A stretch of 64,000 bases of DNA, from the IMG/VR virus record IMGVR_UViG_3300042197_003333, positions 1-64,000 of that record. One strand, written 5' to 3'. How positions within the stretch are numbered: the first letter of the stretch is position 1; every line of letters starts with the position of its first letter. Source of the DNA: a virus. A program made the position numbers and the translations under genes. The notes under the pieces were generated by a model. The model was not told the origin of the DNA. It saw nothing but the letters and a program-made list of their open reading frames with translations, and made no database searches. Positions 5,491 to 55,845 of the stretch are shown here, piece after piece.

Positions 5491-6729
5491 ATGGGTAAAA
5501 GATTAATTATAACAGAAGAAGAAAGAAAAAGAATTCTTAATTTATATGAACAACGTATTTCGGATTTACCTCAAAATCAACAAACATATACAGGACCAAA
5601 ACCAAATATCGGAACCCCAAAAACCAAAGACTTAAGAACCACACTTTCACCACAACAACAGCAACAATATAAGGATATGACAAGAGGGCAAAAAGATTTG
5701 TTCAAAATATATTATGGCGGAAACAAAGAAATAAGTCCAATTGGAAAGGACCCTAGTTTGGTTGAAAAAGTTAGATTAATATTTCCTAAAGCTGATTGGG
5801 AAAAAATAGGTTTACGTTTTTTTAGTATGTTTAACATATTCTCTGGATATTTTACGTCGTTGGCTGATGCTTTGAAACTTGTTGGTAATTTAATTAACAA
5901 AGGAGTCAAAACGAAAGAACTTGTAATTGGTTCTCATGGTGGAGGAGAGCAATTATTGATGACAAAATCTGGTGAAAATTTTAGATTTGACAATTCATTT
6001 TTGGAAAGTATTAAAGAAATTGTGACTCCATCTACAAAAGTTTTTTTCACGGCATGTCATGGAGCGGATGACTTGGAAATGTTAAAAGATGCTGCCGAAA
6101 AGTTGGGAGTTGGAGCATATGCGTCCAAGGGGGTATATAACTATATAACAAATGAAAGCGAAAAAGGTTTTTATTGGTGTTCACCCAATTCTTATAATGT
6201 ACCAAGGGATTCTAAACCTGAAGAACCATTGAATCCTATTGAAGAACAAAAAAAATCTGCACAAGTACAGGTTAGGTTTTTATCTAAAGAAAAACCAACT
6301 GAAATTAACTATACAATAACTACGGAAATTTTTGGAATTCCTATTAAAACTATAAAAAAATTTAATTTTGAATCTAAAAATTATGGAGTGAGTAGTATTA
6401 ACAAGGGTGAATTTTTGATTGAGGGATGGATAGACATTAATTATGATTTGGAGGAATATATAGGTGGATACACTGATAACCCTCCAGCGAATCAAGACGC
6501 ATTAGCCAAATCCTGGTACAATCAAAGCAAGAAAACGCCAAATATGGAAGAATTTTTAGGTAATAAGTTCGTAAATGGAGAAATTAAAATAGAACTGGAT
6601 GGAGCTGATATAAAGACACTGAAACCTTTTTCATTACCTTTATCAGTAGATGATGATTTTTTATTGGAAAACAATCTTTGTAGAAAAGTTGAAAGTTCAC
6701 CGGTTAGTTGGTTTGAACCCATCAGTTAA
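5491..6729 (+). CDS. Leader-bearing protein with clan CD (DUF4347-like) His/Cys peptidase-like domain
   Basis: Leader MGKRLIITEEERKRILNLYEQ; IGSHGGG and FTACHGA motifs resemble a His-Gly/Ala-Cys dyad. Confidence 0.55.
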   Translation: MGKRLIITEEERKRILNLYEQRISDLPQNQQTYTGPKPNIGTPKTKDLRTTLSPQQQQQYKDMTRGQKDLFKIYYGGNKEISPIGKDPSLVEKVRLIFPKADWEKIGLRFFSMFNIFSGYFTSLADALKLVGNLINKGVKTKELVIGSHGGGEQLLMTKSGENFRFDNSFLESIKEIVTPSTKVFFTACHGADDLEMLKDAAEKLGVGAYASKGVYNYITNESEKGFYWCSPNSYNVPRDSKPEEPLNPIEEQKKSAQVQVRFLSKEKPTEINYTITTEIFGIPIKTIKKFNFESKNYGVSSINKGEFLIEGWIDINYDLEEYIGGYTDNPPANQDALAKSWYNQSKKTPNMEEFLGNKFVNGEIKIELDGADIKTLKPFSLPLSVDDDFLLENNLCRKVESSPVSWFEPIS

Positions 6730-6845
6730 ATTATTTGATATATTATTTTGGTTTTAAAATAAATTTTTTTCCATTTTATCAATCCCCCCAACCCCCTTTT
6801 TTTGTTTTTATATTAAAATTTATTTTATAGTTCATTTTTTTGTTA

Positions 6846-6853
6846 TATATTTG
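6846..6853 (+). promoter_or_regulatory. Bacteroidota-type -7 promoter element TAnnTTTG (representative copy)
   Basis: TATATTTG just upstream of ATG 6858; further copies at 8002, 10092, 11619, 44387 (+) and 2851, 3415, 4968, 17301, 18558, 19081, 20365, 39015, 43268 (-). Confidence 0.75.
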
Positions 6854-6857
6854 TTCC

Positions 6858-7612: not shown

Positions 7613-7619
7613 TATTTAT
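7613..7619 (+). promoter_or_regulatory. Phage TATTTAT(A) motif, putative late promoter (representative copy)
   Basis: Found about 5-35 nt upstream of ATG at 7613, 10203, 13297, 17322, 19165, 22302, 23438, 35810, 55899 (terminase), 61787 (portal) and on the minus strand at 47728 and 50472. Confidence 0.65.
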
Positions 7620-7636: not shown

Positions 7637-7951
7637 ATGAAAAAAGTTGTTAGATTAACAGAATCAGATTTGGTACGACTTGTTAAACGAGTTATTATGG
7701 AACAAACTCAGACATCATTTACACTTAATGGGGTTGAACTATTCCCGAATAGAACATATAATATGACACGCTCTATAGATAATAAAGTATATCAAGTGAC
7801 AATTAAAGAAATAATAAAGGATTCTACCGGTAAACTTAGTTATATTCTTGCTGATATTCCTAATTTAGGTGGTCAAAAAGAATTATCATTTATGCAAGAT
7901 GGAACAATTGGAGGTAATATGCAGTTAGGGAGCTTTTCAATCCGAAATTAA
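7637..7951 (+). CDS. Leader-bearing hypothetical protein
   Basis: N-terminus MKKVVRLTESDLVRLVKRVIMEQ. Confidence 0.8.
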   Translation: MKKVVRLTESDLVRLVKRVIMEQTQTSFTLNGVELFPNRTYNMTRSIDNKVYQVTIKEIIKDSTGKLSYILADIPNLGGQKELSFMQDGTIGGNMQLGSFSIRN

Positions 7952-8661: not shown

Positions 8662-8732
8662 ATAGTTATTTTGTATTTTAATTACCCCCATCTTTGTATG
8701 GGGTTTTTTATTTTCATTATATTTATTGTGAT

Positions 8733-9041
8733 ATGAGATATATCATAACAGAAGAACAAAATATTATGTTAAGTGTCCTGAGAAGAACTACTCAAGATTA
8801 TGATTTGATTAAAGATATTGTTTATGAGGGAATGGATTTATTTTTATGCCAGGCTAACTCATTTAATATATATTATGATTTAACATGTAGAAACTCGGCA
8901 ATGACTTATCTTTTAAATTATTTTGACAACCAAAATCAAGAAGGTTATTTAAAAATGGAAGATTATCTAACAGATTTTATTAAGGAAACATTTTTACAAC
9001 AAATTATTGATTATTGGAAAGAAAACAAAGAATTATGCTAA
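8733..9041 (+). CDS. Leader-bearing hypothetical protein
   Basis: ATG 8733 gives MRYIITEEQ, after TATTTAT. Confidence 0.7.
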   Translation: MRYIITEEQNIMLSVLRRTTQDYDLIKDIVYEGMDLFLCQANSFNIYYDLTCRNSAMTYLLNYFDNQNQEGYLKMEDYLTDFIKETFLQQIIDYWKENKELC

Positions 9042-10184: not shown

Positions 10185-10225
10185 TTTTTTATAAATTAAT
10201 AATATTTATATAAAAAAATATTATT

Positions 10226-10513
10226 ATGAAAAAAACAATTAGACTAACAGAAAGAGATTTAACAAGACTTGTTAAAAAAATACTTAGCGAGCAACCAGAG
10301 TTATATGACATGGAGTTAGATGCAATGAAAGAAATAAAACATGAAATTGAAAAGTTAATTGATTTCGCCGAAGGTAAGTGCATGGAAGTATATTCTGATG
10401 AGACAAGATGTGAAAATTTTTTAAAGGTTATGTCAGAAACACCTCTAAAAGATATAGTAATCGACTACAAAAATATTTTTAACAACTTACGACCTGATAA
10501 AGTAAAATATTAA
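10226..10513 (+). CDS. Leader-bearing hypothetical protein
   Basis: MKKTIRLTERDLTRLVKKILSEQ. Confidence 0.8.
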   Translation: MKKTIRLTERDLTRLVKKILSEQPELYDMELDAMKEIKHEIEKLIDFAEGKCMEVYSDETRCENFLKVMSETPLKDIVIDYKNIFNNLRPDKVKY

Positions 10514-10795: not shown

Positions 10796-10817
10796 ATCTA
10801 GTAAATATTTATGATAT

Positions 10818-11147
10818 ATGAAATATTTGATAACAGAAAGTAGATATAATAAAGTAATTAAACAATTTATTGAATCAAGATATGATAATATTGTATCCGT
10901 TAGTTTTGAAGATACTTCTGTTTGGCTTGCAAGTGAAAATAAATCCCATAGTAGAACACTTATTAAAATAATAATTGACCCTCATAAAATTCTTGATGGT
11001 AACATTAATGGAAATTTTATAGGTTATAACAGGAATTTAAGAATAGACATTTGGAATGACCTTAATAAATTATTTAATTTAAAACTTGATAAATATGGGT
11101 CAGATTGGGACATTGCAATATATGGAGTTAAATTAGAACCTATTTAA
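10818..11147 (+). CDS. Leader-bearing hypothetical protein
   Basis: MKYLITESRY start. Confidence 0.75.
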   Translation: MKYLITESRYNKVIKQFIESRYDNIVSVSFEDTSVWLASENKSHSRTLIKIIIDPHKILDGNINGNFIGYNRNLRIDIWNDLNKLFNLKLDKYGSDWDIAIYGVKLEPI

Positions 11148-12138: not shown

Positions 12139-13233
12139 ATGAAAAAAACATTTCTTTCTTTCTTCGCATCGTTGTTGAGCATTTTCGCAATCGGGCAACC
12201 ACTTAATTTTAATCAGATAATGAGAGTAACTATTATAGATACTAATCTGACCGCTTCCTGTGATTTCCAAGTTTATTTTACATATTCGTTGCCGGATGAT
12301 TCTGTATCATACACCACTAATTGCGTTTTTGATTCGGTAGATATTGATTTGACTGAATCTGAAACATTTTATACATGTACAGTTGAGCATTTTGATGTTG
12401 ATACTATTGAATCTTACAATTGGACAATTTGTATTGATGCTATTTTTCCTTGCACTCCATCCGCCGATACGTGTAGAAGTGGTATACTTTATCCAAATAT
12501 GGGTTCTGGAAGTATATATGGACAAATTTTTTATGTTGATGATAATTTAATTGATTACGACCAAGATGGATACCCTTCAAACTTTGATTGTGACGATAAT
12601 AATCCTATTGTATACCCAACTGCGCCAGAACTATGTGATGGTATTGACAACAATTGTGATGGTATTTCAGATTCATTAAATTACCCAACAATTGACATGC
12701 ACTTTGTTGATGACTCACTTGTTGAGGACACCTCATCAATTTATGTGGTTTGTCAAGTAGAGGGGGGTGATTCATTTATGTGGGATTTTAATGGACAAAT
12801 GGTTGATTCACTTTATACTGAAGTGTCATTCGTAGATACTGGTCTTTATACCATTTGTCTTTACGCTTCGGCTAACGGAGGGTGTGTGACTGACTCTTGT
12901 CTATCTTTTGAAATTGATTCAATGGGTTCGTGGTCGCCAAACGGAATGCCAACTGCATATACATTATATGTTGTACCTGAATATATTACAAATTCGGTAT
13001 CTGAAATAACAAATACTCTTGTCGTGTATCCAAATCCTGTATCAAACAACATCACAATTCAAAACAATAATTCGGTTAATATTCAAATTACATCTTTATC
13101 TGGCGGTTTGGTTTATTCACAAAAACATAATGGATTAATCAATATTAATGTTGAAGACCTATCTAGTGGAATTTATATTCTTAATATGAATGATGGTCTG
13201 ACAAATAAAGTTTGTAGGTTTGTAAAACAATAA
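12139..13233 (+). CDS. Secreted protein with MopE-related metal-binding motif, PKD-like domain and T9SS type A C-terminal sorting domain
   Basis: Signal peptide ending AIG-Q; DYDQDGY..DCDDNNPIVYPTAPELCDGIDNNCDG; C-terminal VYPNPVSN...LSSGIYIL...FVKQ. Confidence 0.8.
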   Translation: MKKTFLSFFASLLSIFAIGQPLNFNQIMRVTIIDTNLTASCDFQVYFTYSLPDDSVSYTTNCVFDSVDIDLTESETFYTCTVEHFDVDTIESYNWTICIDAIFPCTPSADTCRSGILYPNMGSGSIYGQIFYVDDNLIDYDQDGYPSNFDCDDNNPIVYPTAPELCDGIDNNCDGISDSLNYPTIDMHFVDDSLVEDTSSIYVVCQVEGGDSFMWDFNGQMVDSLYTEVSFVDTGLYTICLYASANGGCVTDSCLSFEIDSMGSWSPNGMPTAYTLYVVPEYITNSVSEITNTLVVYPNPVSNNITIQNNNSVNIQITSLSGGLVYSQKHNGLININVEDLSSGIYILNMNDGLTNKVCRFVKQ

Positions 13234-13257: not shown

Positions 13258-13305
13258 AACCCTTCCATATTAGGAGGGGTTTTTTGTTTTTTGATATATT
13301 TATAA
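13258..13305 (+). terminator. Terminator plus TATTTAT unit, near-identical copy at 14606-14652
   Basis: aaacccttccatattaggaggggttttttgttttt(t)gatatatttataa occurs twice. Confidence 0.75.
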
Positions 13306-13317: not shown

Positions 13318-13851
13318 ATGTCAAAAAAATTTATAATTTCAGAAGAAGAAAGAAAACATTTAAAATCACTTTACGAGAATAAGGGTATTTTAAATGAACT
13401 TGAGACAAATACCGCTAGCGGAGTTGATTCCGCTTCTGCAAGGCAAAATTTGCAACCACAAGGTGATAAAGGTACATATACTTGGGAGTCAGCACTTAAA
13501 AAATTTCCTTGTCTTAATACTTATGCGACAGATAAAAAGATTTATAATAATGGAAGTTACGATTATGTAAAAATTAAATATGAAAATAACCCATATAATG
13601 CGTTTTTAAACGATGGTCATTTGTATGATATGAAAACAAAAGAATTTACTCAAAAATATTTGGGTAAAGAAGTTCCTTGTAATAAATCAAGTAGTGATGT
13701 ATCGGGTGTTAAATCAAGTAGTAATGTATCGTACAATAACAAATATATTGATGAACTATCTCAAAAATTGCAACTACAAGGAAAAACTGAACAGGAAAAA
13801 ATAAATCAAATTATGGCTGAACTGAATAAACTAACACCAAAAACGGCATGA
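13318..13851 (+). CDS. Leader-bearing hypothetical protein
   Basis: MSKKFIISEEERKHLKSLYE..ILNE. Confidence 0.8.
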   Translation: MSKKFIISEEERKHLKSLYENKGILNELETNTASGVDSASARQNLQPQGDKGTYTWESALKKFPCLNTYATDKKIYNNGSYDYVKIKYENNPYNAFLNDGHLYDMKTKEFTQKYLGKEVPCNKSSSDVSGVKSSSNVSYNNKYIDELSQKLQLQGKTEQEKINQIMAELNKLTPKTA

Positions 13852-14585
13852 TGAAACATATTTTAAACGAAGAAATAAATCAAATAAAATATCTTTTTAA
13901 TTACAAAAAAGGTATTGTAATATCTGAACAAAGTGCGGACAAAGTTACCAATTTTACCGTAAAAAATATTCAAGACAAATTAATTCAATTAGGGTATAAA
14001 GATATTTTATCTAATCAAGGTAAAATTAAAAACCCATCGGATGGTAAGTTTGGTCCGGCAACTATGGCAGCAATTACAAAGGCGATACAAGATTCAAAAA
14101 CGCAGGCACCAGTATCAACAACCGATACCGCCAAAACAACTCCCACTACAACAACTACAGCAACTGCGGATACTACAACTGCTACAGCTCCTACAACATC
14201 ACCAACAACTGCTACAGCTCCTACAACATCACCATCAACTGCCGCCACAACTCCTGCAAATACTACTAAACCAACACAAACAGAACAATGGTGTGAAAAA
14301 AATACAATATTAGATGATGAAAAATGTTATTCTGTTGTAGGTATGAAATATGAAGACGCCGAAAGAAAAGTTCGCAATGACGCTAAAAAAGATGGGGAAC
14401 ATAGATTTAAAAGAGATGAATTTTGGGATGATAACTCTAAAACATTAATTAGAATATATGGAAGTAAGAGTCGTACATCAAAAGAAATTGAAAAAAGAAA
14501 TATTCAAAAACAACAAACTAATGTTGTTCCGAAACCCAGCTATAGTACTAGAGATGTAAAACAATCATTAGATGATAATGTTTAA
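13848..14585 (+). CDS. Leader-bearing protein with peptidoglycan-binding domain and Thr/Ala/Pro linker
   Basis: IQDKLIQLGY...DGKFGPATMAAI (PG_binding_1-like); leader ends VISEQ. Confidence 0.7.
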   Translation: MMKHILNEEINQIKYLFNYKKGIVISEQSADKVTNFTVKNIQDKLIQLGYKDILSNQGKIKNPSDGKFGPATMAAITKAIQDSKTQAPVSTTDTAKTTPTTTTTATADTTTATAPTTSPTTATAPTTSPSTAATTPANTTKPTQTEQWCEKNTILDDEKCYSVVGMKYEDAERKVRNDAKKDGEHRFKRDEFWDDNSKTLIRIYGSKSRTSKEIEKRNIQKQQTNVVPKPSYSTRDVKQSLDDNV

Positions 14586-17295: not shown

Positions 17296-17346
17296 TTGAG
17301 CAAATATACGAAATGATGAAGTATTTATAAAAAAAAAGAAAAAAAT

Positions 17347-18063
17347 ATGAAACAACTTTTTAAAATAGACGAATCGGAAAAAAGACGAATTCTAGAAATG
17401 CATGAAAATGCGACAAGAAGAAATTATTTGATGGAACAGGGAACTCCTGCACCTGCAACAACAGGAAACCAAAAAACACTGCCAAAAAAAGAAACCACAT
17501 TTAATACAATCACTGATTTTTACGGTATAGATATGCCAGTTAAAACTAGCTTATTGAAAATGAAATCTGCGGACGATATAAATAAATTAACAAGTATGAT
17601 GCCACAAAACCAAGAATTAGTAGATGAGATAAATAGTAAAGTTAAAGCTATGGGTTCTTTAGGTAAAGAAACTACAATTGGATTTCCTTCGGCAACTGAT
17701 GAGAATACAAAAAATTTAACATATAAGTATTTAAATGTTTTAATGACGGCCCCAATATGGAATATTGTTACTAGAATATGTGGTGAAGTTGTTAATCTAC
17801 CCGAAGATACGGGTAAAGCTATGGCTTGTACTTCAGGTATTAATTATGAGGTCTATAAAAAAGCTATGGATTTTTTGCTTACAAATAACCAATGGAAAAA
17901 CATATCAGAAGATGCTTTAGCGTCGTTCAAAGATGCTTATAATATGTTAGGGACTGGAGTTAAAAATGATTCTGGTTACCAAAAAATATTTGTACAAATT
18001 CAAAAAGCTCCACTCATCACAGCCCTATCTTCAATTGCAAATGAAAAATATCAATCTTTTTAA
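17347..18063 (+). CDS. Leader-bearing protein, variable cassette copy 1
   Basis: First 98 nt identical to 19189..19286, remainder divergent. Confidence 0.85.
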   Translation: MKQLFKIDESEKRRILEMHENATRRNYLMEQGTPAPATTGNQKTLPKKETTFNTITDFYGIDMPVKTSLLKMKSADDINKLTSMMPQNQELVDEINSKVKAMGSLGKETTIGFPSATDENTKNLTYKYLNVLMTAPIWNIVTRICGEVVNLPEDTGKAMACTSGINYEVYKKAMDFLLTNNQWKNISEDALASFKDAYNMLGTGVKNDSGYQKIFVQIQKAPLITALSSIANEKYQSF

Positions 18064-23437: not shown

Positions 23438-23449
23438 TATTTATACATT

Positions 23450-41462: not shown

Positions 41463-42848
41463 ATGATTAATAAAAAACTTATTTCTGAAATTAATAGAAA
41501 TAAAGAGTTAATGGGTATTGAATTATTGAACGAAACTCTTGATTTTGTTCACGTTGCTGGCGGAAAAAAAGCAAGAATTACTTCACCATTTGGACCAAGA
41601 GGAGGAAGTATACATTATGGTCTTGATTTGGGAGTTCCTTCTGGAACAAAAGTGATTGCTCCTGCTGATGGCACTATTACTGATGCGGTGATTAGAAAAG
41701 ACGCCTGTGGGGGAACATTAAAAATTGACCACGGAAAAATTGACGGAGATGATTATGATACAAGATTTTGTCATTGCAAAGAATTTTTAGTAAATATCGG
41801 AGATAAAGTCACTCAGGGGCAAGTTATTGCATACTCTGGTGGAGGAGCAAAAGACATAGGAAGAGGACGTTCTACAGGCGCCCATATTCATTTTGAATTA
41901 TATAAAAATGGAACACCCATCAACCCTAAAAGTTATTATGATAATTTTGTTGAATTAGATGGAATGTCTCAAATTCAAACAAAAAAGATAAATAAAAAAA
42001 TAGAGTCATTTGATGACATACCTGAAGATTTAAAAAAGATATATTCAAAATTAGAATCAAAATCAGGTAGAAAATATAAAATAGAAAAAGAAAATATTGA
42101 TTTTGAATTTAAAAATGAAGGGGGAATTTATAAAGACGCTGGAAGTGTAAATTCTGAGGCCAAAAAACAAATTATGAAAATGATTGAAGATATGATTATA
42201 ATTTTTCCAGAGTTAAAAAGTGAAACAAAACTTGTTTCAGATTATAGAGGATACGAAAAACAAATTTCGGCTTTTTTAAATAATATAGGCCAATATGCTA
42301 CAACTCTTGACAGGCAAAAATGGTCGGCGTTACCTGGATTTTCACAACACCATACAGGAAAGGCTTTTGATATTTTTAGTGTTGAAAAAAGTTGGTGGAA
42401 ATCAAGACCTGAAATAAAAAAATGGGTTGAAGAAAATTGTAAAAATTATGGATTTGAAGTGTCTTATCCCACTGATAGGGGTTCAAATTTTAGAGGAGCC
42501 GAACCTTGGCATTTGAAATATGTTTCAGGAGCAAAAATTGATTCTTCAGACTTTTTATCTAAAGAAGTGATTGACAATTCAGAAAACAACGCAACATATT
42601 CAGAAAAAAAAGATGTAGAAAAACTTTTAGATAAAATTGGTTTAAAACAATTTGCCGATTCGGAAAGTTTGGATGATGTTGTTCAAAAAGTAAAAGATAT
42701 GGTTCCTGACGAGGTTATAAATAAAACTCCTGAAGGTGATATTGAAATTTTTGGGTATTCTTTATCTGATTTATGGGATAACGCAAAAAGTATATTTGAA
42801 CAACGATTAAATGAAGATATTAATAAAATGAAAAAACCCCTAAAATAA
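41463..42848 (+). CDS. Bifunctional peptidoglycan peptidase (M23 plus M15B/VanY-like) with leader
   Basis: ITSPFGPR..HYGLD..STGAHIHFE (M23); SDYRGY..SALPGFSQHHTGKAFD..EPWHLKY (M15). Confidence 0.88.
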   Translation: MINKKLISEINRNKELMGIELLNETLDFVHVAGGKKARITSPFGPRGGSIHYGLDLGVPSGTKVIAPADGTITDAVIRKDACGGTLKIDHGKIDGDDYDTRFCHCKEFLVNIGDKVTQGQVIAYSGGGAKDIGRGRSTGAHIHFELYKNGTPINPKSYYDNFVELDGMSQIQTKKINKKIESFDDIPEDLKKIYSKLESKSGRKYKIEKENIDFEFKNEGGIYKDAGSVNSEAKKQIMKMIEDMIIIFPELKSETKLVSDYRGYEKQISAFLNNIGQYATTLDRQKWSALPGFSQHHTGKAFDIFSVEKSWWKSRPEIKKWVEENCKNYGFEVSYPTDRGSNFRGAEPWHLKYVSGAKIDSSDFLSKEVIDNSENNATYSEKKDVEKLLDKIGLKQFADSESLDDVVQKVKDMVPDEVINKTPEGDIEIFGYSLSDLWDNAKSIFEQRLNEDINKMKKPLK

Positions 42849-42861: not shown

Positions 42862-43246
42862 TGGTGGAGGCGGGGGTAGTCGAAAACCCCGTCCAGATAC
42901 TCATAAAAGATAGGACTACACGCTTAGGTCAATAATTGTTCTAATTATTCCGAAATATTTCGTTTTTATTTCCCTTCCACACGAACAAAAAAGGGTTTGT
43001 TTCTTTTCGGGTAGAAACCACACCACAGTACGAGCTTCTGTTCCAAGGTTATATGCTTACCGACCCGTTTCGTAGGCTAATCCCAGATTAGGCTACTGTT
43101 ACATCAGCAGTACGGATTAAACCGATTGTCTGAAGTTTTGCGAAAGTTTCGCCATTTACGTTTGTTACCATAGTTTAAAGTGATAGGAAACGTCTCACTG
43201 CGTGCCCCGGCTCCCAAGATGTAAATGTCAAATCCAGCTCGCCCCC
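42862..43246 (-). ncRNA. ssrA: tmRNA; tag reading frame 43153..43088
   Basis: 5' GGGGGCGAGCTGGATTTGAC; 3' ..TTCGACTACCCCCGCCTCCACCA; 7-bp acceptor stem with G3-U wobble; tag GETFAKLQTIGLIRTADVTVA; TATATTTG at 43268. Confidence 0.9.
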
Positions 43247-45236: not shown

Positions 45237-46490
45237 TTATTCCCCCTTTGTTTTTCTTGCCCTTTTTGTCTTCTTATATTCCGAGTAAAGCACTTTTTCA
45301 TCTTCAATTCTCATAACGTAAAGTGTTTCTTCTTTAAGATTTTTTCTTAAAACTTCGTCGGAAATAAAATCTTCAATCTTTTCTTGAATTGCCCGTTTAA
45401 GCGGTCTTGCTCCATATACCTCATCAAACCCAACTTTTGAAATAAAGTCAATAACTGATTCATCAAAAGTAATATTAAGTTTCAACCCCTCAAGTCTTGA
45501 CTGCAATTTGTTAATTTCAACTTTAACAATCTTTTTAACATCTTCATCGTTTAATGTATTAAAAACAATTACCTCATCAATACGATTTATAAATTCGGGG
45601 GCAAAATGATTTTTTAATTCTTTATTCAACATTTGTTTTTTAACCTCTTGGTCAGCATATACGTTGTTTGTTTTGGAAAATCCAATCCCCGCTCCAAAAT
45701 CTTGCATTTTTTTGACCCCAATATTTGATGTCATAATGATAAGACAATTTTTAAAGTTAATTTTTCTTCCAAAACTATCTGTCATATAACCTTCATCCAA
45801 AAGTTGGAGGAGTGATGAAAAAATATCACGATGAGCCTTTTCAACTTCATCAAAAAGAACAACCGAATATGGTTTTGTCTTAACCTGTTCTGTTAATTGA
45901 CCCCCTTCTTCATATCCAACATAACCTGGAGGTGAACCAATCAATCTTGAAACCGAGTGTTTTTCTTGAAATTCACTCATATCAACCCTAATTAAATTTT
46001 CTTCACTTCCAAATATCTGTTTTGCCAATTCTTTCGCTAAAAGAGTATTGTGAGATAAAATACCATTAGTATAATATCTTCTATTAGAACCTTCTTTTAA
46101 TTCTAAATCAAACATAACTTCTTCGTACCCTAAATTAGTTATTGATACAACTTCACATTCTTCTAATTTATCATCACCAAATACACATATTTTATCACCA
46201 ACATTTAAATTCTTCACAAAAACTTCTTCCATATTGTCAATATAAAAAACAATATGATTATCGGCGCATTTGAGTTCTTTACCATCAGATAATTTAAGGT
46301 GATAAACCTCATAAGGTATTGTTTCATGTAATGCCTCAATATCAACAAAACCGGTGTCGGTTAATATTTCATAATCTGATATTTTAGTTGTTTTAGTAAA
46401 TTTTTTTAATGAATCTAATTCGTGTTTATCAAATAAAAAAACATTATCTAATTTCTCAATTCGTTTTTGTATTTCTTCAATTCCATTCAT
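45237..46490 (-). CDS. clpC: ClpC fragment 3: IntC-2 (148 aa, 46490..46047) plus C-terminal NBD2 extein
   Basis: CADNH (block B), MFDLEL..YTNGILSHN/T; then LIRVDMSEF, RLIGSPPGYVGYEEGG, VLFDEVEKAH, GIGF loop, GARPLKR. Confidence 0.9.
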   Translation of the reverse strand: MNGIEEIQKRIEKLDNVFLFDKHELDSLKKFTKTTKISDYEILTDTGFVDIEALHETIPYEVYHLKLSDGKELKCADNHIVFYIDNMEEVFVKNLNVGDKICVFGDDKLEECEVVSITNLGYEEVMFDLELKEGSNRRYYTNGILSHNTLLAKELAKQIFGSEENLIRVDMSEFQEKHSVSRLIGSPPGYVGYEEGGQLTEQVKTKPYSVVLFDEVEKAHRDIFSSLLQLLDEGYMTDSFGRKINFKNCLIIMTSNIGVKKMQDFGAGIGFSKTNNVYADQEVKKQMLNKELKNHFAPEFINRIDEVIVFNTLNDEDVKKIVKVEINKLQSRLEGLKLNITFDESVIDFISKVGFDEVYGARPLKRAIQEKIEDFISDEVLRKNLKEETLYVMRIEDEKVLYSEYKKTKRARKTKGE

Positions 46491-46491
46491 A

Positions 46492-47712
46492 TCATTTGTT
46501 TTTTAAAAATTTTATACATTTATTTATTATCTCTTGCTTATTCCCCCACCTATATTCAGAGTCCCATATTACTAAAACTTCAAAACCACAATTTTTGGCC
46601 ATGCATAATTTTAATTTATCCTTATCCCAAATTTCTTGTGCAGTTATGTTTTGTTTAAATGGATTTGGGTAATCTGTTGATTTATATTTTGTTGGGTTTG
46701 CGTGAAATGAATCTCCATGAAACTCAATTATTTTTTTATTAATAGTGTCAGTAAAATCGTATAACCAAACTCCGCCATTTTCTTTTTCTAACTTGAATTC
46801 TTTATTATGTGTTGCAAAATAAATTTTATCTTTATCAACAATATCATATTTTTCTAAAAGTTTATAAAATAAATCTTGTGAAATTTTAGAAAACCCAATA
46901 ACCATACTACCATTTTTTATCAAAGAATTTAACCATTTATCCTGTCTTTCATTAAATCTTTTTTTACCTTGTTCTTCACCATATTTTTTTATACATTTTT
47001 CTAATGAAAAAGTTGATTGGTGTTTAGATACTTTTTCTTTTGCTTCTTCTTCAGATAATCCAGTTTTTGTCCAATATTTAATATTAGAAGGTATTAATCT
47101 TTTTTGGAAATCTACTTGTTTAGCCGATTTTTTTTGATTTTTAGAAATAATTTTTTTAGCCTCAAGTTCTGTTTTACCTTTATTAATCCAAAATTCAACT
47201 TTTGAAGGAGTTAAACAAATTTTATTTATTTCTTCTTCAGTATATCCTTTTTCTATTAGCATTTTTTTAGATTTACCATGATGAGTTTTAACACATTTAG
47301 AAGATTTTTGCTGTTGTTTTGAAATTTCTTTAGTCGCTAATTCTTTTGGGTAACCTTTATTTATCCAATACTCTTCACATAAACGATTTCTTTTTTTAAT
47401 TTCATAATTTCTGTTTTCTAATTCTTTTAAAGCTTCTTTTTCATCCCAACCACGCTCAATAAAATATTCTATTTTGCCCCATTTTTTAGTTTTAAAGCTA
47501 TAATTTTTTACCAACCACCCTCTCATTAATGAATATGAAATAGTACCATCTTGTTCTTCTAATTTATTCATCAAAGATTGCATTTCTTTTTTTATTTTTT
47601 CATTATTGTAACGTATGTTCTTATCTAATTTTAAAACATAATTTTTAAATGTTTCTAAATCTGGAAAAATTTCGTTTATTTCTTTAGTTCCTTTGTTTGT
47701 TTTTATTTTCAT
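46492..47712 (-). CDS. Free-standing Vsr-like PD-(D/E)XK homing endonuclease splitting intein 2
   Basis: Repeats (Y/F)WxxKGxxExEAxxxIS; C-terminal YDF..IIEFHGDSFHANP..GFEVLVIWDSE. Confidence 0.75.
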   Translation of the reverse strand: MKIKTNKGTKEINEIFPDLETFKNYVLKLDKNIRYNNEKIKKEMQSLMNKLEEQDGTISYSLMRGWLVKNYSFKTKKWGKIEYFIERGWDEKEALKELENRNYEIKKRNRLCEEYWINKGYPKELATKEISKQQQKSSKCVKTHHGKSKKMLIEKGYTEEEINKICLTPSKVEFWINKGKTELEAKKIISKNQKKSAKQVDFQKRLIPSNIKYWTKTGLSEEEAKEKVSKHQSTFSLEKCIKKYGEEQGKKRFNERQDKWLNSLIKNGSMVIGFSKISQDLFYKLLEKYDIVDKDKIYFATHNKEFKLEKENGGVWLYDFTDTINKKIIEFHGDSFHANPTKYKSTDYPNPFKQNITAQEIWDKDKLKLCMAKNCGFEVLVIWDSEYRWGNKQEIINKCIKFLKNK

Positions 47713-47758
47713 AATATCTATTTTATAATAAATATCGTAAAGTTTAAAAAAGTTAGGA

Positions 47759-49270
47759 CTAATTGGTGTCGGTAATGATATTTTTTATTTTTATTGTCTT
47801 TATTTCACCAGTAAACTTGTTTCTAACTATAATTTCAGTATCTTCACAAACACATTTTCCAACACCTGTTGAACCCAAAAATATGAATGAACCAATTGGT
47901 TTATTTGGGTCTTTAATACCCAACCTATTTCTTCTTATTGATTTTGATATTGTTGTGATTGCTTCAATTTGGCCTATAACTGATTTTGACAAATTATCTT
48001 CCATATTTATCAAATTTTCTGTATCATCAACTGATAATTTGGTAACTGGAATTTTTGTCATTATTGAAACAACATCATAAACAAGTTCAATTGAAATGTC
48101 TCTTCTTTTTGTTAATAAATCTTGTTCAAATTTGGTTCTTTCAGCATCTAATTGACTCAAAATCTTTTTTTCCCTGTCTCTTAATTGTGCTGCCATTTCA
48201 TAATTTTGCCTTTTGACAACAAGTAATTTTTCTTCCCTAATTTTTTGTGATTCTTTCTTTAATTCCTCAATAATTTCGGGATTTTTAACATCAACTTGAG
48301 CTCTTGCTCCAACTTCGTCCAAAATATCAAAAGCCTTATCAGGAAATTCTCTATCTGTTATATATCTGTCGGCCAAATCAACACATGCGTTTAAAATTTC
48401 ATCTGTAAAATTAACCTTGTGATGAATTTCGTATTTTTCTTTCAAATTTTGAAGAATTTGAAGAGTTTCTTCTTTTGTTGATGGTGAAACAATTACTTTT
48501 TGGAACCTCCTGTCAAGAGCCCCGTCTTTTTCAATATTTTTCTTAAATTCATCAAGTGTTGTTGCTCCAATGCACTGAATTTCACCTCTTGATAATGCGG
48601 GTTTTAGAATATTTGATGCGTCAAGTGAACCAGATGCGTTTCCAGCCCCAACAAGGGTATGAATTTCGTCAATAAAAAGAACTACATTTGGATTTACCGT
48701 AATTTCGTCAATTATAACCTTTAATCTTTCTTCAAATTGACCCCTATATTTTGTTCCCGCAACAATTGAATTTAAATCAAGTGATAAAATTCTTTTGTCA
48801 ACCAAATTTCTTGGGCAATCTCCTTGAAATATTTTCATTGCAAGACCCTCAACTATCGCCGTCTTTCCGCAATTATGGGAAACAACTCCATTTGATATAT
48901 ATTTTCTTTCATCGTCTAAAACTTCTAAATCATAGGTATTATTAATTCCTATTTCAGTATATTCTATAACATCAACCAATTCATTATTTTCAGTCCAAAC
49001 AAATTCACCTTCTGTAATGTTACCTAAACTTAACCAACAAGAATTATTTTCAAAAACAACATTTGGATTTAAAGAATTTTTAGAAACTTCAACCAAATGT
49101 TCGTCAGAACCTGATAATTCTAAACCATTTGATAGTTTAATTCTAATACAATTTTTATTGTTTTTTTTGTATAAATTACCAATTAATTTATATCCTGATG
49201 GTGTTTTAATTTTGTAAGTCCCACCTTTTTTTTCAACAAGGTCAAAAAAATCTTCTATTTTTATTTTCAT
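47759..49270 (-). CDS. clpC: ClpC fragment 2: IntC-1 (133 aa) plus middle extein (339 aa) plus IntN-2 (31 aa, 47854..47762)
   Basis: TYDLEV..ISNGVVSHN/CGKTAIVEGLA; AGTKYRGQFEER; LFIDEIH; UVR-like middle domain; FLGSTGVGK/CVCEDTEI. Confidence 0.9.
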   Translation of the reverse strand: MKIKIEDFFDLVEKKGGTYKIKTPSGYKLIGNLYKKNNKNCIRIKLSNGLELSGSDEHLVEVSKNSLNPNVVFENNSCWLSLGNITEGEFVWTENNELVDVIEYTEIGINNTYDLEVLDDERKYISNGVVSHNCGKTAIVEGLAMKIFQGDCPRNLVDKRILSLDLNSIVAGTKYRGQFEERLKVIIDEITVNPNVVLFIDEIHTLVGAGNASGSLDASNILKPALSRGEIQCIGATTLDEFKKNIEKDGALDRRFQKVIVSPSTKEETLQILQNLKEKYEIHHKVNFTDEILNACVDLADRYITDREFPDKAFDILDEVGARAQVDVKNPEIIEELKKESQKIREEKLLVVKRQNYEMAAQLRDREKKILSQLDAERTKFEQDLLTKRRDISIELVYDVVSIMTKIPVTKLSVDDTENLINMEDNLSKSVIGQIEAITTISKSIRRNRLGIKDPNKPIGSFIFLGSTGVGKCVCEDTEIIVRNKFTGEIKTIKIKNIITDTN

Positions 49271-50439
49271 AATACATTTAATATTTTATCATATAGTTTA
49301 GTAAAATCTGTCTCATAAATCAATTTAATTTTGTTTTCATTACAAAATAAAATTTTTTTATTCATTTTATCGTAATATTTAGATTGTTTTTCGTCTAATT
49401 TGTTAAAATTTTTTCCGTCTAAAATACCAAAATATTCAATATACACATCGTAATCAGGTAGATAAAAATCACATTTAAAATGCGAATTCGGGTACCCAAT
49501 CTCATATGAATAATTAATTTTTTTAAATTCAAATAAAAGACAAAGTTTATATTCTTTAACGCTTTTAAATCTAATCCCATTATGATATACAGGGGTACCA
49601 TATAAGCCACACTTTAACTCATAAGGAAATGATGAAAAAAAAGTTTTTTTAATTGTGTCTTTATTAGTATTGTACCTATTTGAAATGATTGAGCTATTAA
49701 TGTAAGGGATAATATCTGAAATAGTTTTAACGTCTATTTTTGTTAAAACACACAAAACAAATTTTGAAATAGAATCACAATCAATACATTCTGTTATAAT
49801 TTTTTTTGTACTATCTAAAAAAGATGTTCTTACTATTAAATCTTTTATTGGTACTTTATCAAAAGAATATGAGTTCTTTTTTTTATTAATTTCATTAATT
49901 TTATTATTTGTGTGAAGACTATTAATCCATTTTTTTTGTCTTTTTTGGAAAATTTCAACTCCTTCCTCTTCACCATATTTTTGAATACAAATTTTTTTGC
50001 TAAAAGTTTTTTGACTTTCAGAAATTAAATTTTTTGCCTCTTCAGAACTAAATCCTTTTTTTACCCAATATTCAATTCTTTTAGGGGATTTGTCATAAAA
50101 TTTTTCAGGATTTATTTTCTTTTTGTCTGAAAGAATTTTAGAATTTTTTTTCTGTTGCTCACTAATAAATTGAGTTATTTCTGATTTTTCCCATCCCATC
50201 ATAAATAAAAAGTCTTCATTATATACACTTTCAGGGTAATTAACTATTTGTCTATACCACTTCTTAATTTCCTTAAAATTAATTTGAGTCGTATTTTTAA
50301 TTTGATTATTAACTTTATCAATACAAGAGTCGGGTATTTTTTTAAAGAACTTAAAAAAATTATTATTTAAAATAAAATTTTCTAAATCAATATGATTTGA
50401 TATAGTTAATAATTTTTTTCTTTTAAAGAAAACATTCAT
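49267..50439 (-). CDS. Free-standing PD-(D/E)XK homing endonuclease splitting intein 1
   Basis: YWVKKGFSSEEAKNLISESQ, CIQKYGEEEG shared with 46492..47712; FKSVKE..KCDFYLPDYDVYIEYFG. Confidence 0.75.
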   Translation of the reverse strand: MNVFFKRKKLLTISNHIDLENFILNNNFFKFFKKIPDSCIDKVNNQIKNTTQINFKEIKKWYRQIVNYPESVYNEDFLFMMGWEKSEITQFISEQQKKNSKILSDKKKINPEKFYDKSPKRIEYWVKKGFSSEEAKNLISESQKTFSKKICIQKYGEEEGVEIFQKRQKKWINSLHTNNKINEINKKKNSYSFDKVPIKDLIVRTSFLDSTKKIITECIDCDSISKFVLCVLTKIDVKTISDIIPYINSSIISNRYNTNKDTIKKTFFSSFPYELKCGLYGTPVYHNGIRFKSVKEYKLCLLFEFKKINYSYEIGYPNSHFKCDFYLPDYDVYIEYFGILDGKNFNKLDEKQSKYYDKMNKKILFCNENKIKLIYETDFTKLYDKILNVL

Positions 50440-52111: not shown

Positions 52112-53359
52112 ATGAGCAAACTTAAACCAATTGGTAGTGAAAAATTAAAAGGTCAAGAACAAATTAAAAGAATTCTTGAAATTGCTAAATACAAGGAACA
52201 TCTTCCTAATTCTATAAATGAATCTGCAAGAACAGATTATAATACCAAACTTGTTGATGGTAACGTTTATTTTATCGTCAAAGAAAAGATGGGTTACACA
52301 ATTAAAAAAGGGTTAAATGAGTCAACAGCTGATTATATTGAACCTATGAAAAATAGAAAATATTTTGATTCATATGCTGACGCAATGAAAAAACTTAACT
52401 TGGTTGCTCAAGAATTAAATAGAGTTAATCATATTAATGAAGGTATTTCTTTATTTACTGAAGATAAAAAGTATTTCCTTAAAACACCAAAACCTGAAAC
52501 AACAGATGAGGCGGCGCCTGAAATGGCTCCACCTCCTCCACCACCTGCTCCTTCACCTGAAGAAATGCCAGCTCCACCTGCTGAAGATGAAATGCCGTCT
52601 GAAGGTCCTGACGCTCCTGAAGGAGATATGTCACCTGAAGACTCAATGCCTGATGAACCAACTGACGAAATGCCGGATGAAGGTCCTGAGGAAGCTGATG
52701 ATGAGGTTCCAACATATAAGTCAATTCAAAAATTGACTGGCAAACTCGCTCAAAAAATTAGAGATTTTAAAGGTGGTGACGAAGAAATGACATCAAAAGA
52801 CGCAAAATATGTAATTAATTCAATTTTATCTTCAATCACAGATTTACTTGATGACGAAGATAAAGAAGACATCATAACAAAACTTGAAGATAGTGAAGGT
52901 GAAGAAGATATGAGCATGGGAATGGAAGATGAAGAAGAAATGCCAACTGATGAAATGCCGGCCGAAGAAGGTGGAGAAGAAGAAATGCCATCAGAAGAAC
53001 CAAAAGAAATGACAGAGGAAGAAATGAATGAAAAGTATGTTGAAAGAGCACTTCAAAGTATATTCAAAGAATCAACTGTAGATAAAGTTCTTTCACAATA
53101 TTTTGTTATAAATGAAAATGAAAAGAAATTTACAGAAACAAAAAAACAAAATAAAAAAACTTACTTGAAAAATAAGAAAAATTCAGACAAACAAAAAATC
53201 AGACAATTATCAGAAAGCTTAAAACAAAAAAATGTCGCAAGTGAAATTATTAGCAGTTTTCCTGAAATGAAATTTGTTGGAAAAACAAATTTAGGTAATT
53301 TAGTTTTTGAACATAACAACAAACAACTTAAAGTATCGCCAAAAGGTGAGTTGTTATGA
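52112..53359 (+). CDS. Acidic Pro/Glu-rich protein, possible head scaffold/core
   Basis: Long E/D/P/M-rich tracts; many (L/I)xE sites; upstream of terminase. Confidence 0.55.
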   Translation: MSKLKPIGSEKLKGQEQIKRILEIAKYKEHLPNSINESARTDYNTKLVDGNVYFIVKEKMGYTIKKGLNESTADYIEPMKNRKYFDSYADAMKKLNLVAQELNRVNHINEGISLFTEDKKYFLKTPKPETTDEAAPEMAPPPPPPAPSPEEMPAPPAEDEMPSEGPDAPEGDMSPEDSMPDEPTDEMPDEGPEEADDEVPTYKSIQKLTGKLAQKIRDFKGGDEEMTSKDAKYVINSILSSITDLLDDEDKEDIITKLEDSEGEEDMSMGMEDEEEMPTDEMPAEEGGEEEMPSEEPKEMTEEEMNEKYVERALQSIFKESTVDKVLSQYFVINENEKKFTETKKQNKKTYLKNKKNSDKQKIRQLSESLKQKNVASEIISSFPEMKFVGKTNLGNLVFEHNNKQLKVSPKGELL

Positions 53360-53775
53360 GTTATTTGATTTTTGTAAACGGATTAGGACCAAACTATAAA
53401 GGGAACAAGATTTACGAATTTATTTTTTCAAATAGTTTGGAAGTGTGGGGAGACGATTGGGACAGCGAACCAGCGAATTCAAACCCAACACCACCTGAAT
53501 CCGAATACATTAAAAAAGTGGGAGTTTTAAATAGAGAAGGAATTGATATGGAACTTATACAAAACTCCGATTTTTTTTCTATGAAAGATGCGGTTGATAA
53601 AGTGGTTGCACTTGGATGGGAAAAAGATAAAGACCTTGATAATAGACTTGTTTTTCATTTTGGAGACACAGAAGAAGAAGTAAAAAACAAACTATACGAA
53701 AAGGACATAATATTAGAATTTTATAAAGAATTTGAAAATGGACAGAAAAAAACAAAACTTGTTGGAAATGCGTAA
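53356..53775 (+). CDS. Hypothetical protein
   Basis: Coupled ORF in the morphogenesis operon. Confidence 0.7.
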   Translation: MSYLIFVNGLGPNYKGNKIYEFIFSNSLEVWGDDWDSEPANSNPTPPESEYIKKVGVLNREGIDMELIQNSDFFSMKDAVDKVVALGWEKDKDLDNRLVFHFGDTEEEVKNKLYEKDIILEFYKEFENGQKKTKLVGNA

Positions 53776-54568
53776 ATTGGGGTTTTCAACTCAAACAATT
53801 TCATTGCTTTCTGAATCACAAATTAAAATGATTTTGGAAAAAATTAAAAATAAGAAAAAAGAAGCGAAAGAAGCTCAAGTAACAACAACAACTACTAAAA
53901 AATATGGTAAAGATGAACCATTAAATATGACTCCGTCACAATTAGCCCAGGTTGAGCCTAAAAAAAATACAGACGGTTCAATTGAAATTACTACAACAAA
54001 AACAGAAACAACTGAAGGTAAAAAGAAAAAATACAATCCTTGGGCAGTTTGCACAGCGTCTGTAGGTAGAAAGAACAAAAAGAAATATGAAGATTGTGTA
54101 ATGGGTGTTAAGAAAAAATTAAAAGAAGGAAAAAACCCATACGAATATATTATTGAATCTAAAATTGAAGAGATTGTTGAAAACAACTTATCACCAAAAT
54201 TAAGTAAGTCAGAAATTCTTAGTATCATTGCAGAAAAAAAGATGATAAAAAAAGAAACTATGGAGGCGAATACAGAAACCGCACCAGTTAAAGCACCACC
54301 AAAAACAAATCCTGATACAAGACCATCACATCCAGGTAGAAAAGACAAAGAACAACCAAATCCAAGACCAAGAGCGGGAACTGAAACGGCGCCTGTTAAA
54401 GCTCCGCCAAAACCTAATACAAAGCCCGATACAAGACCATCACATCCAGGTAGAAAAGACAAAGAACAACCAAATCCAAGACCAAGAGCTTCAAGTTCGG
54501 AAATGGAATCCAAAAAAAGTGAAATAATAACAGCGATTTTTAATTTAATAGATAAAGAAAACAAATGA
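53738..54568 (+). CDS. Basic protein with duplicated ~37-aa repeat
   Basis: TETAPVKAPPK..PDTRPSHPGRKDKEQPNPRPRA twice; NPWAVC..YEDC. Confidence 0.75.
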   Translation: MDRKKQNLLEMRKLGFSTQTISLLSESQIKMILEKIKNKKKEAKEAQVTTTTTKKYGKDEPLNMTPSQLAQVEPKKNTDGSIEITTTKTETTEGKKKKYNPWAVCTASVGRKNKKKYEDCVMGVKKKLKEGKNPYEYIIESKIEEIVENNLSPKLSKSEILSIIAEKKMIKKETMEANTETAPVKAPPKTNPDTRPSHPGRKDKEQPNPRPRAGTETAPVKAPPKPNTKPDTRPSHPGRKDKEQPNPRPRASSSEMESKKSEIITAIFNLIDKENK

Positions 54569-55845
54569 AAAAAATAAGATTAACCGAAGCTGATTTAACG
54601 AGAGTTATTAAAAGGATTGTAAAAGAAGCTCCAATTGATTATGGAGATTATCCTGAAAGAATGGACCCAAGACTTGAAAGAAAGTTTGGAGACCCTGAAG
54701 GTATGTTTGCAAAAAATCCTGCATTTAGAAAAGGAGCTGCTGATATAGAAAGATTGGCTGGTGGAAGATTTAAAGAAATTGTAAATAGAGTTAGAAGTGC
54801 ATTTAATCAACCTAATGTAAGTTCTAATCAAGTTAGACAACAAATTATGCAACAAATGATGATGACAACTGGTCAAATTATGAGCATTGAAAGTCAACAT
54901 AACGATGAGTTAAAAGATTTAGCCTTAGAACTTGCTCTTGAAGAGACAGGAACTGACAGAGATTGGTATGAATTTGATTTGACACTTGGTCAAGCGGACT
55001 CAGGAATGGGAGAGTTTAGAATGAAACCTGAAGAAAAACCAAAATTTGAAACACCTCAATCTTTTGATATTGACGATGAAACTGATGAAGAACAATTTCA
55101 ATCTGAAGTTGATAAACGAAATATAATTAATCTTATTATACAAGGTGAGGCAAAAAAAGGACACTATTCTTTTATGAAACCATCTTATATGCAAAGATTG
55201 GCACAAATTGATTCAGAATTACCAAATTTGTATAGACAAGTAATGGCGGCAAATGACCTACTTTATTTTACTATGGAACAAATGATTGAAATGATGAGCG
55301 AAACAGGTAGTGGAGTTGCAGGAAAAATGGAACTACAAGATGCCGATGACGATGATGATGAAGGAGGTGAAGGTGAAGGTCCTGATACAAAAATTGTTGC
55401 AGCAGGTATTATATTTCCAATTCTTCTTCACGAAATTATTAAGGGGCTTGAGGAAGCTCCGGCAAGACAACAATTTTCACAAATGGACCCAGAAAGAGCA
55501 TCAAAAATTATGGGTCAAACTGATGTATTGGCGTATGAGCCAATGCAATTAAGATTGGGGCCTCCTGTTGTTGAACTTATTAAATTTTCATTACCTGATG
55601 AAATGTTTGACCCTGAAAATTCGGGACTTAATCCTTGGTTCAAAAAGGAACTTTATAAAATTCCAGCAAAAGAATTTCTTGATTTGATTGGAGACGCAAT
55701 GTCAGAAAACAAAACAGAAAAAGATAGAGCCAAAAAAAGATTTACTGAAGTAATGAGAGCGGCGCAAGCGGCAAAAAGAGAGTATGACGAATATAATTCA
55801 GGAAAAGACCAAGAAGACCTTGACGACTTTTTAGCGAGTTTATAA
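54565..55845 (+). CDS. Leader-bearing conserved phage protein
   Basis: MKKIRLTEADLTRVIKRIVKEA; FPILLHEIIKG. Confidence 0.75.
   Translation: MKKIRLTEADLTRVIKRIVKEAPIDYGDYPERMDPRLERKFGDPEGMFAKNPAFRKGAADIERLAGGRFKEIVNRVRSAFNQPNVSSNQVRQQIMQQMMMTTGQIMSIESQHNDELKDLALELALEETGTDRDWYEFDLTLGQADSGMGEFRMKPEEKPKFETPQSFDIDDETDEEQFQSEVDKRNIINLIIQGEAKKGHYSFMKPSYMQRLAQIDSELPNLYRQVMAANDLLYFTMEQMIEMMSETGSGVAGKMELQDADDDDDEGGEGEGPDTKIVAAGIIFPILLHEIIKGLEEAPARQQFSQMDPERASKIMGQTDVLAYEPMQLRLGPPVVELIKFSLPDEMFDPENSGLNPWFKKELYKIPAKEFLDLIGDAMSENKTEKDRAKKRFTEVMRAAQAAKREYDEYNSGKDQEDLDDFLASL

Follow-up and report, generated by a model that had tools for sequence, protein, structure and literature searches.

Interchangeable N-terminal leaders ending in (I/L/V)-x-E, probable capsid-targeting propeptides of an uncultured T4-like jumbo phage

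The DNA analyzed here (hereafter, the window) is a 64,000-nucleotide stretch that makes up the first 64 kb of one 80,245-bp viral contig with ∼29% G+C (IMG/VR record IMGVR_UViG_3300042197_003333). Its salient feature is a set of N-terminal leaders of five classes (A to E), which are carried by 21 to 22 open reading frames (ORFs) of the window and by 24 to 25 of the whole contig, with three of the carriers lying just outside the window. An earlier note on this DNA had described such leaders on more than 20 unrelated proteins and had taken them for a portable tag that loads cargo into the phage head. Every N-terminus that it quoted starts at an ATG and reads as described. The leader genes of the window are listed below by class, with lengths in amino acids (aa), glutamates (E9, E22, etc.) that precede candidate cuts, and E values of profile hidden Markov models (HMMs) of the leaders.

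7637-7951, plus strand: class A, 104 aa; leader codons 1 to 22 (7637-7702); candidate cuts after E9 and E22; TATTTAT at 7613-7619; HMM E value, 8e-17
10226-10513, plus strand: class A, 95 aa; leader at 10226-10291; TATTTAT at 10203-10209
23450-23770, plus strand: divergent class A, 106 aa; leader at 23450-23515; TATTTAT at 23438-23444; orthologue with a variant leader in L017
31523-32110, plus strand: class A, 195 aa; leader at 31523-31588; no TATTTAT of its own, directly after 30927-31520; HMM E value, 2e-17
54565-55845, plus strand: class A, 426-aa head-module protein; 21-aa leader (54565-54627); predicted mature start at A22 (API-D-Y)
5491-6729, plus strand: class B, 412 aa; leader at about codons 1 to 20; candidate sites E9 and E20; TATTTAT at 5480-5486; HMM E value, 1.5e-11
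13318-13851, plus strand: class B, 177 aa; candidate sites after E9, E20, and E27; TATTTAT at 13297-13303
17347-18063, plus strand: class B, 238 aa; leader codons 1 to 30
19189-19875, plus strand: class B, 228 aa; head duplicated from 17347
32694-33101, plus strand: divergent class B, 135 aa; candidate sites E10 and E18; TATTTAT at 32671-32677; HMM E value, 1e-4
22325-23437, plus strand: class C (21 aa) on a PPK2 polyphosphate kinase (PPK2, 5e-73); TATTTAT at 22302-22308
35834-36994, plus strand: class C (23 aa) on a 386-aa protein without family match; HMM E value, 1e-6
41463-42848, plus strand: class C (24 aa) on an M23 plus VanY/M15 peptidoglycan hydrolase; predicted cut L-N-E|T after E24
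13848-14585, plus strand: class C subtype 2 (27 aa) on a protein weakly matching PG_binding_1; gene start overlapping the 13318-13851 stop codon; HMM E value, 9e-7
33736-35790, plus strand: possible class C-like leader (33 aa, ending in I-S-E), 684 aa
14657-15550, plus strand: class D (∼11 aa, ending in L-K-E), 297 aa; orthologue with the same leader type
28331-28960, plus strand: class D (14 aa, ending in L-K-E), 209 aa; HMM E value, 1e-3
1087-1398, minus strand: class E, 7-aa M-K-Y-L-I-T-E, 103 aa; HMM E value, 1e-6
455-784, minus strand: class E, 109 aa
110-439, minus strand: class E-like paralogue of the two preceding genes, without a cut site
8733-9041, plus strand: class E (M-R-Y-I-I-T-E) on an unrelated 102-aa protein; HMM E value, 1e-5
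10818-11147, plus strand: class E on an unrelated 109-aa protein; HMM E value, 4e-6

Profile HMMs trained solely on leaders from other phage contigs, when run on the proteins of this contig, recovered window proteins at their N-termini for all five classes. The class A model retrieved seven proteins (E ≤ 4e-8), namely, 7637, 10226, 23450, 31523, and 54565, plus 74740(-) and 75046(-) outside the window. The class B model retrieved five (5491, 13318, 17347, 19189, and 32694), the class C model four (13848, 35834, 41463, and 22325), and the class E model five (1087-, 455-, 110-, 8733, and 10818-11147), while the class D model matched 28331 and 74268(-), with 14657 as a weak hit. The inclusion of 33736 among the relatives of class C, as the earlier note had it, found no backing in the class C model, whose match to this protein was not significant. 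As for the M-K-Y-L-I-T-E leader assigned to positions 1-1398, 1087 and 455 carry it, whereas 110-439 has K instead of the terminal E at residue 7; the product of this last gene would stay uncleaved if the leader is a cleavage tag. These three genes are paralogues over their full length (55 to 73% identity), and 17347 and 19189 share a duplicated stretch of 38 residues (97% identical) ahead of unrelated remainders. The count of more than 20 leader proteins thus stands, but the description of all of them as unrelated is slightly overstated because some are paralogues. The cargo assignments were all recovered, i.e., PPK2 (22325), M23 plus VanY/M15 (41463), and a weak PG_binding_1 (13848). The true start of the PPK2 gene is 22325 rather than the ATG at 22196, and the orthologue in G002, a complete 294-kb relative, has a leader of the same class. 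No Pfam or PHROGs family covers any of the leaders, and most of the cargo had no match either.

The leaders end abruptly. All-against-all BLASTP within the contig confined the similarity among the seven class A proteins to residues 1 to 25, and the boundary is conserved in metagenomic proteins, in agreement with the earlier observation that similarity mostly ceases right after (I/L/V)-x-E. Scanning IMG/VR with a degenerate DNA pattern for class A residues 6 to 20 yielded at least 120 loci, and this pattern began at codon 6 in 132 of 141 ORFs. Glu22, a residue that was not part of the search pattern, was present in 123 of the 125 distinct class A proteins from IMG/VR; position 21 was free, and the information content, at ∼4 bits before, collapsed after position 23 and had reached 0.3 bits at position 24. 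P3 was I, L, or V in all 125 class A leaders, which the search pattern partly forced. Taken over hundreds of independent proteins, (I/L/V)-x-E is almost invariant at the leader boundary. A 30-column class A profile compared with 1.84 billion cluster representatives retrieved 8,820 proteins at E ≤ 1e-3 (836 at E ≤ 1e-10), nearly always at residue 1 among the matches listed. The cargo that follows is highly diverse: 168 class A proteins fell into 123 cargo clusters with a median cargo length of 108 aa, and a Pfam domain was found in 1 of the 70 longest. Neither megablast of 20 kb nor tblastn of a 26-aa leader gave a match to cultured phage records, and the leader motif string was not found in the searchable literature.

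Nearly all long leaders contain two candidate sites, ending at residues 7 to 10 and 20 to 30, and short leaders (6 to 10 aa) have the first site only; a long leader can therefore be described as a block of the size of the T4 capsid-targeting sequence (CTS) followed by a second helix. AlphaFold2 models of 41463 and 54565 showed a leader helix of low to modest confidence, a predicted local distance difference test score (pLDDT) of <50 at the predicted cut, and a confident domain behind it. In 41463, the helix spans residues 4 to 16, residues 20 to 25 are disordered, and the M23 domain starts at about residue 30; in 54565, the helix spans residues 8 to 19, and the low-scoring residues are 19 to 21. 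Six in-frame metagenomic polyproteins (P0140, P0142, P0144, P0148, P0153, and P0179) contain two or three class A leaders, of which the internal copies have no Met (N-K-K or R-K-K replaces M-K-K) and often have another (I/L)-x-E ahead of them. Recognition of the motif is therefore that of a module, independent of a free N-terminus.

The contig also harbors a T4-type head module, with terminase, portal, a protein at the gp67/68 position, an S77 protease, scaffold, and a gp23-type capsid protein, whose gene order matches that of T4 genes 20-67-68-21-22-23. Its components are as follows (contig coordinates where they lie beyond the window).

52112-53359, plus strand: scaffold-like paralogue (BLASTP E value of 7.5e-12 to 67210-68664), on the same strand as 54565 and directly upstream of it
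53738-54568, plus strand: second scaffold-like paralogue (E value of 2e-5 to 52112), directly upstream of 54565
55919-57670, plus strand: large terminase, preceded by TATTTAT, which anchors the head/packaging module
61821-64718 (past the window end at 64000), plus strand: T4-type portal (gp20) with an intein
64739-65446, contig: gp67/68-position protein, first among the contig's proteins in (I/L/V)-x-E density
66165-66881, contig: Peptidase_S77 (T4 gp21) prohead protease
67210-68664, contig: scaffold-like protein at the gp22 position
68695-70581, contig: gp23-type major capsid protein

The protease matches Peptidase_S77 (Pfam PF03420; E value, 7.6e-25) and is 32% identical to T4 gp21 by BLASTP, with its conserved catalytic His (E-L-N-H-P) and Ser (S-S-R-G) aligning with H85 and S140. 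Furthermore, the sequence L-I-N-E|A-A of the gp23-type capsid protein aligns with the T4 cleavage site F-L-T-E|A-E, an alignment which suggests that the specificity of the protease has been retained relative to T4. The density of (I/L/V)-x-E in 64739-65446 reaches 6.8 per 100 aa versus a contig median of 2.0, and the scaffold is enriched as well. Because gene spacing is tight, 52112-53359 presumably shares a transcript with 54565. The intein that interrupts the portal gene contains a LAGLIDADG endonuclease domain (Pfam Intein_splicing and LAGLIDADG_3).

The class A protein encoded within this module, 54565, provided the most detailed view of leader exchange. It belongs to a family of conserved head-module proteins with 3,003 homologues. 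All 57 orthologues that have the A-P-I-D-Y junction carry (I/L/V/M)-x-E directly before it, a feature not forced by the search; the leader is the 21-aa class A version in 20 of them and an 8- to 9-aa peptide in the other 37. The boundary glutamate (E21) was invariant in 46 aligned sequences. More distant orthologues begin with 6- to 7-aa leaders ending in I/L/V/F-x-E (e.g., M-A-K-I-K-E|Q) and then enter the conserved core, and the orthologue in L111 has a 43-aa leader ending in I-G-E. In G002, the leader of the orthologue (57928-59190; L125:17928-19187) is 10 aa long and shares 6 of its 10 residues with the T4 CTS, among them M-K-T-Y and the terminal I-x-E. The junction in this family looks as one would expect if the mature proteins began at a processing site there. 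The 54565 cargo itself has a confident all-alpha AlphaFold2 model (predicted template modeling score, 0.84) and an invariant H-E-x-x-K motif, but no significant structural match was found. Searches for its identity gave nothing in Atlas, only noise with Foldseek against the PDB, and one uncharacterized phage protein in BFVD. An hhalign comparison with T4 gp24 was negative, and a relationship to DUF885/M32-like helical proteins reached a best VIA-align Z score of 5.8, below the meaningful level, and is, like the H-E-x-x-K motif, a lead only.

Exchange of leaders was not confined to this family. Orthologous cargo bears class A or class D leaders in L061 versus 74268(-) and L075 (53 to 70% cargo identity), class A or class B leaders in L003 versus L099 and in L069 versus L102, and class A or class C leaders in L015 versus L115. 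Homologues of the M23/VanY hydrolase occur with leaders of class B, C, D, or E, with a minimal 7-aa M-x-K-x-L-x-E, or with no leader.

Leader genes are preferentially preceded by the motif TATTTAT, as the earlier note had remarked. This motif lies 4 to 27 nucleotides (nt) upstream of 42 of the 111 ORFs, among them those for terminase, portal, protease, and scaffold. Counting occurrences within 35 nt, it precedes 16 of 24 leader genes versus 23 of 87 other genes of the contig (P = 5e-4), while the host-type TAnnTTTG box was found at no leader gene. In G002, it precedes 22 of 28 leader genes versus 66 of 360 others (P = 8e-11); further members of the TATTTAT class there are baseplate gp25, a lysozyme, and large repeat proteins, and the host-type class comprises DHFR, CCA/polyA polymerase, and HNH endonucleases. 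These patterns are consistent with late coexpression of the leader genes with head genes. TATTTAT occurs at two preferred distances from the ATG, 4 to 7 nt (e.g., 5480-5486, 8720-8726, and 10806-10812) and 13 to 20 nt (e.g., 7613-7619 and 17322-17328); the short spacing implies that the mRNAs would be leaderless or nearly so.

We also assessed the distribution of leaders relative to the S77 protease. Among aquatic carriers of class A leaders, S77 was present in 5/5 complete genomes and in 10/10 that are at least 52% complete, and class E carriers encoded it in 4/4 complete genomes and in 9/9 of at least 50% completeness, which gives 19/19 for the aquatic genomes that are at least half complete. 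A 27-aa leader variant from gut and rumen, in phages of up to 413 kb, was accompanied by S77 in 7 of 8 complete genomes, so that leaders and S77 coincide in 16 of 17 complete genomes in all. A search of 596 Gb of cellular genomes with the class A pattern produced three matches, two of them on one 64-kb contig that encodes S77. This contig, QCKH01000009.1, is deposited in a 'Prochlorococcus sp.' single-cell assembly (L245/L246/L247), has 28% G+C, and contains TATTTAT besides its two class A-type leaders and S77; it belongs to a phage of the present group rather than to a cyanobacterium.

The complete relatives with the same leaders measure 240 to 322 kb, and the contig therefore represents about a quarter of a jumbo genome; its source is an uncultured T4-like jumbo phage with a genome of roughly 290 kb. 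A protein with a type IX secretion system (T9SS) sorting domain (12139-13233), together with TAnnTTTG promoter-like boxes, points to a host within the Bacteroidota. Passages of a recent paper describe 'moraphages' as uncultured aquatic jumbo phages of Flavobacteriia with genomes of 200 to 307 kb and with core genes for a prohead core protease, portal, capsid protein, ClpA-type ATPase, and peptidase (PMC12619734). The phage studied here resembles them in genome size, habitat, and predicted host and probably belongs to this clade. The searched passages of that paper and of the one on Jug-phages (PMC12880540) contain no mention of N-terminal leaders or propeptides.

The S77 protease of the contig, the capsid site I-N-E|A, the sharp leader boundary, the swaps on orthologous cargo, and the restriction to S77-encoding phages support the earlier proposal of a cleavable tag of the T4 gp21 type. 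The TATTTAT motif common to leader and head genes, the predicted structures, and the polyproteins are in line with it. On this basis, we consider it likely that the leaders are removable T4-type capsid-targeting propeptides that load their cargo into the head. Late in infection, tagged proteins would be made alongside head proteins, and their amphipathic N-terminal helix would dock them onto the scaffold or core of the assembling prohead. The gp21-like S77 protease (66165-66881) would then cut after (I/L/V)-x-E, setting the mature cargo free inside the head while the small leader peptide escapes, and the cargo would presumably be expelled into the host with the DNA.

Several observations weigh against this interpretation. 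Classes A to D exceed the T4 CTS 2- to 3-fold in length, and their conservation is much stronger than that of this mutation-tolerant tag, a hint that they may have an additional or another function. Inside the head of a myovirus, peptidoglycan hydrolases are uncommon cargo. As a motif, (I/L/V)-x-E holds little information, and all that counts is the conservation of its position. It is not depleted inside the cargo either (observed/expected ratios of 1.03 to 1.21, versus 1.15 to 1.16 in other proteins), and because of this lack of depletion the comparison is uninformative on exposure of the cargo to the protease. The cooccurrence with S77 is confounded by shared ancestry, since a Clp-type ATPase and other clade-wide genes cooccur equally. 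G054, a gut contig of 95% completeness that bears genuine leaders, has no detectable S77; it contains just a 47-aa gp23-like fragment, with no protease nearby. In Jug-phages, portal and protease genes are reported, in passages of the paper describing them, to be fragmented or divergent (PMC12880540). Finally, all leader carriers are uncultured, and the evidence is computational throughout.

Among the alternatives, the one that survives best, although we regard it as unlikely, is that the leader serves as a docking or recognition helix for other machinery of the phage and is left in place by the S77 protease; the machinery in question could be that of tail or baseplate assembly, a chaperone, or a phage-encoded Clp-type unfoldase for which the leader is a degron. 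A conservation far above the need of the T4 CTS would fit such a role, as would the Clp-type ATPase and conserved peptidase encoded by the contig and, according to passages of PMC12619734, by the clade, and the polyproteins, with their internal copies, show that the leader need not stand at a free N-terminus. However, this explanation accounts neither for the invariant terminal (I/L/V)-x-E nor for the replacement of a 21-aa leader by 6- to 8-aa ones on the same cargo, and it leaves the T4 cleavage site kept in the capsid protein unexplained. It is less probable still that the N-terminus is the working part of a fast-diversifying effector family, e.g., a helix binding DNA or a host target, with the C-termini as specificity modules. 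The 123 clusters of short class A cargo, almost none with a Pfam domain, would be expected of such a family, but leaders also precede complete enzymes (PPK2 and M23/VanY) whose orthologues work without them, and the classes replace one another on the same cargo. We find even less credible a signal for export or translocation across the cytoplasmic membrane, e.g., of peptidoglycan hydrolases. Several cargos do act on or bind peptidoglycan; however, the leaders are charged amphipathic helices without hydrophobic core or twin-arginine motif, they are carried by cytoplasmic enzymes such as PPK2, and the exported protein of the contig, 12139-13233, uses an ordinary signal peptide and a T9SS C-terminal domain. 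Secretion signals of the Sec, Tat, or T9SS type were rejected on leader composition. That the similarity is a nucleic-acid feature spread by recombination (e.g., a translation-initiation region or an RNA element), with an incidental peptide, as the near-identical heads of 17347 and 19189 and the TATTTAT common to many genes might suggest, is most improbable and largely refuted, because leader codons differ synonymously (e.g., Ser as TCA or AGT and Arg as CGA or AGA), which indicates selection on the peptide rather than on the DNA, and because conservation extends to internal copies that are in frame but lack a start codon.

If the leaders are capsid-targeting propeptides, their classes might in addition form an addressing code in which each class docks to a different paralogue of the prohead core or scaffold, an idea that we put forward tentatively and judge doubtful. 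Candidate docking partners on the contig are the three scaffold-like proteins (52112, 53738, and 67210) and the gp67/68-position proteins (64739 and 65687). Under such a code, the class would set copy number, head location, or ejection order of the ∼30 cargo proteins per phage, and two cut sites and polyprotein forms would permit staged release.

Other features of the window lie apart from the leaders. A Clp/Lon-type ATP-dependent ATPase is encoded in consecutive pieces at 45237-50439 (minus strand), where 47759-49270 and 45237-46490 match successive parts of phrog_4871, and the related ORFs 49267-50439 and 46492-47712 sit upstream of and between these two pieces. ARAGORN identified a phage transfer-messenger RNA at 42862-43246 (minus strand) with a long tag of 21 residues ending in V-T-V-A. 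Between terminase and portal, an open frame of 1,326 codons (57781-61761, plus strand) contains ∼680 residues of T-P-T-N-T-x repeats, broken up by a Cys-rich island and followed by a leucine-rich-repeat-like C-terminal part; the repeats cause a GC skew of -0.30, and the start of the frame is uncertain because its first 860 codons have no ATG. The product of 12139-13233 (plus strand) has, besides its signal peptide, a metal-binding motif of the MopE type and, at its C-terminus, a T9SS sorting domain (Por_Secre_tail), which suggests that the phage uses the type IX secretion system of its host.

If the propeptide interpretation is true, a signature of 6 to 27 residues marks the packaged, and probably injected, proteome of uncultured Bacteroidota jumbo phages, with carriers in lakes, sea, gut, and rumen. 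Since the marked clusters (at least 8,820) are almost all without annotation, they would make up a ready catalogue of candidate early-acting effectors and counter-defense proteins. The T4 CTS principle would be extended from one short tag on few proteins to a multiclass system of two-part, interchangeable tags that involves ∼8% of the genes, and new tags would become available for loading foreign proteins into phage heads. Were the addressing code also true, the tag would reveal thousands of injected jumbo-phage proteins from sequence, many of them likely counter-defense factors.

A system of this kind is already known, given the precedent of the T4 CTS. T4 gp21 cuts after L/I-x-E, a 10-aa CTS suffices to load unrelated proteins, even GFP, and the T4 literature has proposed the CTS as a general device of T4-like phages (PMC9026906, PMC3012670, and PMC8442874). 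The novelty lies in the tag sequences, in the length and bipartite construction of the leaders, in the multiplicity of interchangeable classes, in a class A that hardly varies between very different phages, in how many genes are tagged, in the occurrence of polyproteins, and in the host group. The leaders resemble the CTS of T4 IPI-III and Alt in their association with a homologous protease, a gp23-type capsid protein, and the same head gene order, in their position as N-terminal tags ending in (I/L)-x-E on unrelated, fast-evolving, mostly orphan cargo, and in the location of cargo genes in variable regions. In contrast, classes A to D have no sequence similarity to the T4 CTS, and class E and the short forms recall the N-termini of T4 gp24 and gp22 in style only. 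The long leaders have 20 to 30 aa in two parts with two candidate cut sites, and there are at least five interchangeable classes plus minimal forms of 6 to 9 aa. Tagged genes number ∼25 to 30 per genome versus a handful in T4, and at least 8,820 cargo clusters, besides polyprotein forms, exist in public data. The cargo further differs in including PPK2 and peptidoglycan hydrolases, the hosts are Bacteroidota, and the system is known from sequence alone. The giant phages phiKZ, 201phi2-1, and SPN3US offer a second comparison, as they possess a diverged gp21-like protease and process dozens of head proteins after Glu, and propeptides of the phiKZ type carry redundant cleavage sites (PMC9026906). 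Cleavage in these phages occurs at S/A/G-x-E, whereas P3 is I, L, or V in the leaders described here, and their propeptides are long and protein specific, unlike the shared portable tag of the jumbo phages of Bacteroidota.

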